64,000 nt of DNA, taken from positions 48,705 to 112,704 of the forward strand of contig JAZOTA010000045.1 of the NCBI GenBank assembly GCA_045657425.1, written 5' to 3'. The translations under genes and the position numbers were made by a program. Position 1 is the stretch's first letter; every line of letters starts with the position of its first letter. Shown here one piece after another: positions 60,677 to 61,039 of this stretch. Source of the stretch: Eubacteriales bacterium. Its GTDB lineage: Bacteria > Bacillota > Clostridia > Oscillospirales > CAG-382. A model generated the notes under the pieces. That model made no database searches, was not told the origin of the DNA, and worked only from the letters and a program-made list of their open reading frames with translations.

Positions 60677-60752
60677 CGCGGAGTAGAGCAGTTGGTAGCT
60701 CGTCGGGCTCATAACCCGGAGGTCGCAGGTTCAAGTCCTGTCTCCGCAACCA
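60677..60752 (+). tRNA. Initiator tRNA-fMet (anticodon CAU); CCA encoded
   Basis: C1:A72 mismatch at the acceptor end and three consecutive G-C pairs closing the anticodon stem (TCGGG-CTCATAA-CCCGG). Near-identical layout to E. coli tRNA-fMet. Confidence 0.92.
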
Positions 60753-60754
60753 AA

Positions 60755-60995
60755 AAGAAAACCACCCAATCGGGTGGTTTTTCTTTTTGTTTTTGACGCA
60801 AGGCGTTGCAATGCGTCTTTTTGGGTTATGAGACCGACGAGCGGAGCTCGTTGGGAAAGCACTCCGAGCGCATTCGGGGAATGAGAAAGCGAGGAAGTGC
60901 TTTCCGCAGCGGTCGAAAAAATCAAGTGAGCCACGCGAACGTTAGATTTTTTCGGGTTACCGCAAGGCGGCTTTTTAAGGCGAAGCCATAAAAAG
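60755..60995. other. 241-bp non-coding insert bounded by the 44-bp tRNA-derived direct repeats; contains hairpin-repeat copy C
   Basis: It holds nested inverted repeats: GACGCA..TGCGTC, GGAAAGCACT..AGTGCTTTCC, and A/T-arm CGAAAAAATC..GATTTTTTCG (60914-54) around ..GCCACGCGAACG... No credible ORF. Confidence 0.5.
60758..60788 (+). terminator. Intrinsic terminator after the tRNA pair
   Basis: AAAACCACCC / GGGTGGTTTT stem with loop AATC, then a T-run. Confidence 0.8.
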
Positions 60996-61039
60996 ATAAC
61001 CCGGAGGTCGCAGGTTCAAGTCCTGTCTCCGCAACCAAA
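60996..61039 (+). repeat. Perfect 44-bp direct repeat of tRNA-fMet positions 60711-60754 (anticodon loop through 3' end +3 nt); att-like displaced tRNA 3' half
   Basis: ATAACCCGGAGGTCGCAGGTTCAAGTCCTGTCTCCGCAACCAAA occurs identically at both places. The second copy has no 5' half and is embedded in a long hairpin (61031-61078). Confidence 0.9.

Follow-up and report, generated by a model that had tools for sequence, protein, structure and literature searches.

A conserved structured module without a gene between two copies of an initiator tRNA 3' part in gut and rumen Oscillospirales

Introduction

In integron attC sites, as in the XerCD-dependent attP of CTX phage, the inverted pieces of one folded strand rebuild a duplex that resembles the target. 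Integrase-less derivatives of integrating elements and arrays of partial tRNA genes have also been described, among them CIMEs (PMC5704250), tycheposon-type elements (bioRxiv 10.1101/2020.12.28.424599) and tRNA fragments (PMC9897764), and the structured scaffolds of mobile-element guide RNAs have been treated elsewhere (PMC10055086, PMC13565253). The literature consulted on tRNA fragments left by integrating elements, on CIMEs and on partial-tRNA arrays yielded nothing like the module that we describe here.

The locus under study belongs to a 64-kb stretch of DNA, hereafter the window. As in the attL/attR pairs of elements that target tRNA genes, an intact tRNA stands at one end of the segment and an orphan tRNA 3' part at the other, with the boundary in the anticodon arm; as in these elements and in CIMEs, there are empty and occupied alleles, tandem units whose older copies are decayed, and no recombinase inside. 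The locus departs from both in measuring only 285 bp, in having a co-varying structured interior instead of decaying cargo, in carrying an inverted copy of its target, in having no known parental element and in occurring in many copies away from tRNA genes. No integrase of the kind that defines a tyrosine-recombinase element was detected, among the 54 window ORFs screened, within or next to the segment, where 60755-60995 holds no supported ORF, and no relation of its ends to a parental integrative element, as expected of a CIME, appeared among phages, plasmids, IMG/VR or the arms of an island at the same tRNA (L001, below). Judging from the sequences at hand, the module occurs in many gut and rumen Clostridia and sits in part of its copies, though not in most of them, beside tRNA genes with matching pieces of the target tRNA.

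Results and Discussion

The tRNA-fMet locus

A sequence-only reading of the window had reported a perfect direct duplication of a tRNA 3' half, and the 44-mer ATAACCCGGAGGTCGCAGGTTCAAGTCCTGTCTCCGCAACCAAA is indeed present in two exact copies, 60711-60754 and 60996-61039, both on the + strand with 0 mismatches and 241 bp apart (60755-60995), with 0 matches in shuffled sequence. Since the bases flanking the two copies differ on either side, the repeat is exactly 44 bp long. Copy 1 lies within an intact tRNA-Met(CAT) at 60677-60752 (ARAGORN; Rfam tRNA, 64.9 bits), in whose sequence we read a C1/A72 mismatch and GGG/CCC, that is, three G-C pairs closing the anticodon loop, and which we take on these grounds to be the bacterial initiator tRNA-fMet. 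Copy 2 is an orphan 3' part that starts, as had been claimed, inside the anticodon, its first base being A35, the second of the anticodon. The features of the region are the following.

60498-60526: promoter-like site of the tRNA operon (promoter scan)
60553-60641, + strand: tRNA-Leu(UAA), first gene of the tRNA operon, 35 nt upstream of tRNA-fMet (ARAGORN, Rfam)
60677-60752, + strand: intact initiator tRNA-fMet (CAU) (ARAGORN, Rfam)
60711-60754, + strand: direct repeat copy 1, tRNA positions 35-76 plus AA, within the functional gene
60757-60782: terminator A, bidirectional hairpin; a wider palindrome (60748-60767 / 60772-60791) extends into the tRNA 3' end
60800-60819, + strand: second terminator-like hairpin, not significantly tRNA-like in the window
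60823-60842, + strand: 20-nt inverted copy of tRNA-fMet, positions 41 to 22 (19/20 matching)
60846-60855, + strand: direct copy of tRNA positions 22-31 with C28 changed to T (GCTCGTTGGG); 3' arm of hairpin H1
60844-60981, + strand: conserved structured module (covariance-model match, 105.7 bits, E 6.6e-25)
60854-60905: hairpin H2 of the module
60904-60971: invariant core CCGCAGCGGTCGAA-H3-TTCGGGTTACCGCAAGGCGGC of the module
60972-60995, + strand: linker with GGCGAAGCC (GCGAAGC mini-hairpin motif), ending at the A35 junction
60996-61039, + strand: direct repeat copy 2, orphan positions 35-76 plus AA, 42/42 identical to the resident tRNA
61042-61065: terminator B, bidirectional hairpin; its palindrome (61030-61043 / 61066-61079) takes in the tRNA 3' end
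61070-61102, + strand: inverted copy of tRNA positions 78 to 45; start of a second, truncated unit
61191-62108 (region from 61152), + strand: GH43 gene with its own near-consensus promoter at 61142-61169

The 241-bp segment and a single tRNA 3' part add up to a unit of 285 bp, and the tRNA pieces succeed each other along the locus in the order direct, inverted, direct, inverted. The spacer folds far more strongly than its shuffles on both strands (z = -5.8 and -6.5), and its only two ORFs, of 61 and 67 aa, are short and unsupported; its hairpins are mostly consecutive, not nested as the sequence-only reading had them. Within 60823-60842, GGGTTAT is able to pair with the ATAACCC of either repeat copy (stem P1), and CCGACGAGC forms the 5' arm of hairpin H1. 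The inverted copy at 61070-61102, just past the loop of terminator B, was equalled in 1 of 2000 shuffles. A decayed extension of the other inverted copy into 60783-60822 had no statistical support in the window (642/2000 shuffles), although in L002, L009 and L043 the inverted tRNA copy does reach further than here. Relatives differ in the stem sequence of the hairpin at 60800-60819 and retain its pairing.

A terminator-like, bidirectional hairpin follows each repeat copy (60757-60782 and 61042-61065), as the same reading had stated, and terminators A and B are the tips of tRNA-derived palindromes. Terminator B forms a 50-nt palindrome (61030-61079), with the tRNA 3' end (CGCAACCAAAGCAA) as one outer arm and the reverse complement of that end as the other; terminator A (60748-60791) is likewise a tRNA-derived palindrome, weaker than that of B.

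A conserved structured module

The module is about 135 nt long and combines H2 with a long helix, H3, whose base is invariant. A gapped search pattern built from the blocks invariant in the first six copies retrieved 89 metagenomic loci from human gut and rumen and 0 matches in IMG/VR; the covariance model finds one copy in the 64-kb window and 100 in the fetched loci, and the module is present in about 100 metagenomic places with roughly 30 flank contexts. In a structure alignment of 22 non-redundant copies with 36 pairs, 22 of these pairs are retained through changes on both sides. Paired cells amount to 93.4%, against 39-49% with the partners slid, double-change cells to 138, against 19-45 in the slid controls, and 0 of 500 shuffles reached the observed covariation values. 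A count meant to settle the strand, and RNA against DNA, gave 30 G.U and 20 A.C in the module pairs, numbers compatible with RNA and with single-stranded DNA alike; tandem G.A pairs and a GNRA-like linker are present. The linker motif is GCGAAGCG in most other copies as against GGCGAAGCC in the window. The inverted tRNA piece is always mismatched near positions 31-38, so that the P1/H1 junction stays unpaired.

Between the window and either L005 or L006, close relatives described below, H2 is identical at 48/48 positions and the core at 91-94%, whereas the adjacent CDS are 83-90% and the spacers about 78% identical. This pattern, in which the module is better conserved than neighbouring CDS, is the opposite of the decay of a neutral scar. 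The first option offered by the sequence-only reading, a large island almost wholly deleted, is contradicted both by the 48/48 identity of H2 and by the nature of the segment, a co-varying module with about 100 copies elsewhere. The bounded segment is a functional, widely distributed structured unit without a gene and not the residue of an island.

No family of Rfam 15 matches the module, the only hits in the window region and in 13 loci (E <= 0.5-1) being to tRNA. The 241-bp insert had no match in phages, plasmids or IMG/VR, the phages giving only tRNA matches, and 20-25-mers from the junctions and the inverted fragment had none among viral contigs. The module itself was absent from the plasmid collection; in the phage collection it was found as a single diverged copy, on an unverified contig with bacterial-looking genes (L107). 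L107 (MT836571.1) and the records labelled H1/H3 (MT837313.1, MT835736.1) come from human faeces, are designated in GenBank 'UNVERIFIED Bacteriophage sp.', and carry tRNA-Leu/tRNA-fMet or tRNA-Pro along with genes of bacterial appearance; instead of phage genomes, they may represent fragments of bacterial DNA or the junctions of prophages. A 20-mer of the H3 loop that matches within a phage structural gene (L003) is absent from the metagenomes, and we regard the match as chance. In L064 Rfam gave a tRNA-like sub-match that extends over the 3' part of the module and the orphan, apparently an accident of this lineage.

Six contigs (L013, L049, L069, L094, L095 and L009) hold two module copies each, some of them tandem or partial. 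Module copies of a high-GC family are distinguished by a longer conserved 5' extension and a long-range stem of their own (GCAAATCG / CGATTTGC).

Empty, occupied and rearranged alleles

Syntenic contigs were obtained through homologues of the DUF362 protein of the left flank; homologues at 79-80% identity were not syntenic, and exact-protein look-ups of two flanking genes gave no match. Both allele types that an insertion implies were found, as the earlier reading had proposed to look for. In L099 and L101 (87%) the tRNA-fMet is joined straight to the flanking sequence, flank D, and the covariance model detects no module, which represents the empty site. In L006 (90%) the tRNA is followed by terminator A, the inverted piece, the module, an almost erased orphan and flank D; the unit is of ~300 nt and the remnant of the old tRNA 3' end is still joined to flank D. 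The alignment of the empty and occupied alleles is clean, and from these syntenic relatives it follows that the insertion occurred between positions 34 and 35. The att-scar reading of the repeat thus stands as far as an insertion at the tRNA is concerned, but not in regarding the insert as island debris. L006 shows further that the function of the module does not need the att-like parts, since the module is highly conserved there while the orphan and stem P1 are decayed.

Closer relatives reveal rearrangements of the same pieces. In L005 (97%) the intact tRNA is followed by terminator B, a diverged second module and a perfect copy of tRNA positions 49-76, and then by terminator A, the inverted piece, the module, a decayed orphan and flank D; a full second unit with its own diverged module stands there, as against the truncated start at 61070-61102 in the window. 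L002 shares the window insert at about 85%, and its orphan joins the equivalent of window 62139-62348 directly, without GH43. Unit order is permuted among relatives at 97-98% (the window, L005, and L002 with L004 of one MAG), and in the arrays the tRNA-proximal 3' copy is perfect and the more distal copy decayed. In L043, a distant rumen relative, the module is syntenic and the orphan is directly followed by a MATE orthologue, 67% identical, an arrangement that long vertical inheritance, and no recent movement, could explain. When ~185,000 species genomes were scanned for copies of the tRNA 3' half that follow a base other than the anticodon C, only two orphans came to light, L001 and L002.

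A second target, tRNA-Pro, and copies away from tRNA genes

In 15 loci a same-strand tRNA lies upstream of the module at a near-fixed distance; 13 of these tRNAs are tRNA-fMet and two are tRNA-Pro(CGG). The two latter copies (L050 and L081) follow the same plan with tRNA-Pro sequence: inverted positions 51-24, a 3-nt turn and direct positions 28-37 are followed by H2 and the core, the linker GCGAAGCG, and an orphan of positions 41-76 plus a duplicated terminator. TCGGG-CTC-ATAACCC is the native site at fMet and TCGGG-ACC-ATGAGG that at Pro; they share the motif TCGGG-N3-AT, which is known from two tRNA targets only. Units at both tRNAs alike have TTGGG, seen in the window at 60846-60855, as left junction and GCGAAGCG directly abutting AT as right junction, and the left boundary is fixed at A35 for fMet and at A41 for Pro. 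The repeat at tRNA-Pro takes in the terminator (~72 bp, against 44 bp at fMet) and resembles a local duplication more than it does an att site carried by the unit.

The orphan is identical to the tRNA of its own genome in at least six lineages (8 loci), at 42/42 positions or at 36/36 for Pro, and the tRNAs of these lineages differ from each other in T-arm and acceptor stem; in four lineages the orphan is decayed. Sites at fMet, at Pro and away from tRNA genes are all represented in one module cluster (>=90% identity). A cluster of 66 members from a high-GC host occurs in at least eight flank contexts, with some copies in tandem, and most copies, those of the high-GC family, have neither an adjoining tRNA nor target-derived flanks. 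In L107 a diverged module lies 130 nt downstream of tRNA-Pro(UGG), without duplication. Clustering of the ORFs around all module copies, in search of a recurrent partner, was dominated by spurious ORFs in high-GC contigs.

Recombinases and islands at tRNA-fMet

The sequence-only reading had attributed the repeat to a tyrosine recombinase, yet nothing ties the unit to one. Among the 54 window ORFs screened, 9 of them without a Pfam match, no integrase, transposase or reverse transcriptase was found, the others being housekeeping and sporulation genes. The 285-bp unit encodes no recombinase, and no TnpA, TnpB or IscB gene lies in the window.

Genuine islands do use the tRNA-fMet 3' half in this clade, as L001 (Oscillospiraceae, mouse gut) shows. 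It contains two orphan halves of tRNA-fMet 7.6 kb apart, each following a near-identical ~80-nt arm, and its cargo includes a truncated integrase N-terminal domain, an M78 peptidase-like protein and a 1471-aa HD-CE protein; the arms are unrelated to the window insert. Positions 1-8000 of L001 resemble a defence island in tandem accretion.

Inserted islands that carry large serine recombinases separate the tRNA 3' end from terminator B in L004 (98%, from the MAG of L002) and in L009. They do not use the 44-bp repeat, and the module and orphan follow on their far side. Such islands sit directly after the CAACCA of the tRNA-fMet 3' end or of the orphan (L004, 1850-2010; L002, ~980-1010; L070, after the orphan; L009, 8361-9233; L032, +309..1446 from the core), so that the orphan can serve as a second island target. 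The islands of L004 and L070 have the common end TATCG(A/G)GTG...TAACGGATTT, and TTCATAACGGATTT is present as inverted copies at both ends in L004 and L002.

A proposed insertion unit and its alternatives

The explanation that we prefer, in which we place about as much belief as doubt, is that of a 285-bp protein-less insertion unit with a conserved structured core that is moved in trans into tRNA-fMet between positions 34 and 35. Of the options put forward by the sequence-only reading, a tiny non-autonomous element mobilized in trans fits the data best. The unit would be composed of the tRNA 3' part (35-76), the terminator, the inverted copy of D-stem and anticodon arm, H1, formed by the inverted and direct copies, the ~135-nt module and a short linker abutting A35. 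The tRNA would remain intact after insertion because its 3' part and terminator are now supplied by the unit, and the former 3' part, displaced downstream, would be the orphan. A site-specific recombinase acting in trans may move the unit. In the folded single strand, P1 and H1 would mimic the duplex of tRNA gene positions 22-41, with the module branching off this mimic where positions 32-34 would be, and protein binding (or an RNA role) might fall to the conserved module. Gene conversion or recent re-insertion could keep the 44-mers perfectly identical. The junction of an excision circle would read ...GCGAAGCC ATAAAAAG joined to ATAACCC...terminator A, and excision would leave an empty site in which the tRNA is directly followed by terminator B; in L005, terminator B stands after the intact tRNA.

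The mode of action of such a unit may be akin to that of the hairpins of integron attC or CTX-phage attP. P1 (7 bp) and H1 (9 bp) reproduce tRNA positions 22-41, with an analogue at tRNA-Pro, and the unit resembles these sites in being non-autonomous, presumably moved in trans, and arrayed at one site. It differs from them in that no link to IntI or Xer has emerged, a large branch leaves the middle of the mimic instead of its tip, and the target is a tRNA gene. The unit is also reminiscent of MITEs and of BOX, ERIC, Correia and REP-BIME sequences, which are short, non-coding, hairpin-rich and modular, multicopy in some genomes and sometimes tandem; of the module, the window holds a single copy, and one cluster at >=90% identity has at least eight contexts in metagenomes. 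Unlike MITEs, it has no terminal inverted repeats of its own at its ends, its repeat is of 44 bp here and ~72 bp at tRNA-Pro, it carries target-derived inverted and direct segments, and its core undergoes compensatory change across lineages where MITE copies decay. Group I introns in tRNA anticodon loops were considered and set aside, as Rfam gave no Intron_gpI match and the upstream tRNA piece is inverted instead of direct; group I introns, T-boxes, retrons, DGRs and LTR-like (PBS/R) arrangements offered no testable defining feature that the locus shares.

The main rival, which we consider possible though doubtful, is a resident non-coding RNA gene in the trailer of the tRNA operon, read through or processed from the tRNA transcript. 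The tRNA pieces would then stem from local template switching at hairpins (D-arm, terminator), of the tandem-inversion-duplication type; gene conversion would keep them identical, and the module would have spread by ordinary duplication or transfer. The strong covariation and a conservation above that of neighbouring CDS agree with this account, as do the tandem G.A pairs and GNRA-like linker, the position of the module, always on the tRNA strand and at a fixed distance downstream in the 15 loci, its presence downstream of tRNA-Pro(UGG) with no duplication, its retention in L006 despite the decayed orphan and its synteny in L043. The inverted copies moreover turn at the D-stem and at the terminator palindromes, as the direct and inverted pieces of a tandem inversion duplication turn at hairpins. 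However, a promoter scan detected no sigma70-type promoter-like site for the module, which two terminator-like hairpins separate from the tRNA, and no Rfam family matches it. A clean empty site exists in a syntenic relative, and a single module lineage, multicopy in one taxon, occupies tRNA-fMet, tRNA-Pro and sites away from tRNA genes. Independent template switches are not expected to yield the same architecture and module twice, nor would a tandem inversion duplication, as a sporadic error of replication, be predicted to recur at two different tRNAs and across many lineages, each time with this module.

A different role for the tRNA-matching segments, unlikely in our judgement, would make the module the scaffold of a new target-matching system whose insertion site they programme. 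The inverted (20-28 nt) and direct (36-44 nt) segments would act by pairing or duplex mimicry, the conserved H2/H3 structure would serve as the substrate of an unlinked enzyme, and an exchange of the matching segments would have retargeted the unit from fMet to Pro. By analogy, a structured scaffold abutting variable target-matching sequence may recall the omega/reRNAs of TnpB and IscB and the IS110 bridge RNA, and its segments, like those of mobile-element guide RNAs, would match both target strands. Unlike the loci of such guides, this one has no TnpB, IscB or IS110 gene nearby, its matches span 20-44 nt and not 4-20, and no Rfam match exists; it also differs from the PATEs of IS200/IS605 in its long duplication, with none of the genes of that family in the window.

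Still less do we favour, as quite improbable, an ordinary att scar or cis-mobilizable remnant, that is, a tyrosine-integrase island that has lost all but its attR-proximal arm, the module being the arm region of a common island family, where integrase and accessory proteins bind. A direct repeat of a tRNA 3' part beginning in the anticodon loop is what this predicts, islands such as L001, with its integrase N-terminal domain, do use this tRNA half, an ORF after the orphan in L012 is integrase-like when its translation is judged by eye, and the CIME concept is documented (PMC5704250, PMC6323972). Against it, no intact parent with the module is found (0 in IMG/VR and plasmids, only tRNA matches to the insert in phages), the L001 arms are unrelated, and the large-serine-recombinase islands of L004 and L009 sit at the tRNA 3' end or terminator B and not at the 44-bp repeat. 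Compensatory changes in stems are not predicted for protein-binding arm sites, and the inverted tRNA copy and the copies at non-tRNA sites are left without explanation. A decayed second tRNA-fMet gene from an old tandem duplication, the scenario on which the sequence-only reading thought its own proposal might founder, is very improbable: tRNA genes are often tandemly duplicated and gene conversion could hold 42 bp identical, but two intact tandem tRNA-fMet genes occur in no relative, and the orphan starts in every lineage exactly at A35, after the module linker and not after a decayed 5' half, with an analogous fixed boundary at tRNA-Pro.

If the insertion unit that we propose proves true, it would count, at 285 bp and without a gene, among the smallest integrative units so far observed, kept across gut and rumen Oscillospirales, and the manner in which protein-less elements choose and keep a tRNA target would become testable. 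It would likewise add an undescribed structured nucleic-acid family, absent from Rfam, which annotators miss or call a tRNA fragment. The tRNA-fMet trailer of this clade, where units are shuffled and both serine-recombinase islands and GH43 have been inserted, is a recombination hotspot of relevance to strain-level variation in gut Clostridia.

The right flank

The GC content of GH43 is 37-38%, against 43-52% to its left. In L002 and L043 the orphan passes into the downstream sequence without this gene, which is therefore not part of the element and was probably acquired recently. Because the orphan of L043 is directly followed by the MATE orthologue, MATE constitutes the ancestral right flank, and a further att copy beyond it is unlikely. 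The remaining option of the sequence-only reading, a second tandem unit extending to the right, is thus partly upheld, by the tandem units of L005 and the start of a second unit kept in the window, and fails in including MATE. GH43 and the TATATCATC hairpin array are later arrivals.

This array occupies window 62196-62350 (also L002, ~464-640) and is made of six small hairpins. A 139-aa ORF without a Pfam match (62199-62615, - strand) overlaps it, and neither L002 nor L043 has a counterpart of the 340 nt (62350-62690) that separate the array from the MATE start. The first three hairpins each precede TATATCATC and the last three each follow GATGATAT(A/G)C. In L002 the array comes directly after the orphan tRNA half and a terminator C; as a whole it forms a larger palindrome, 90% conserved in that relative.
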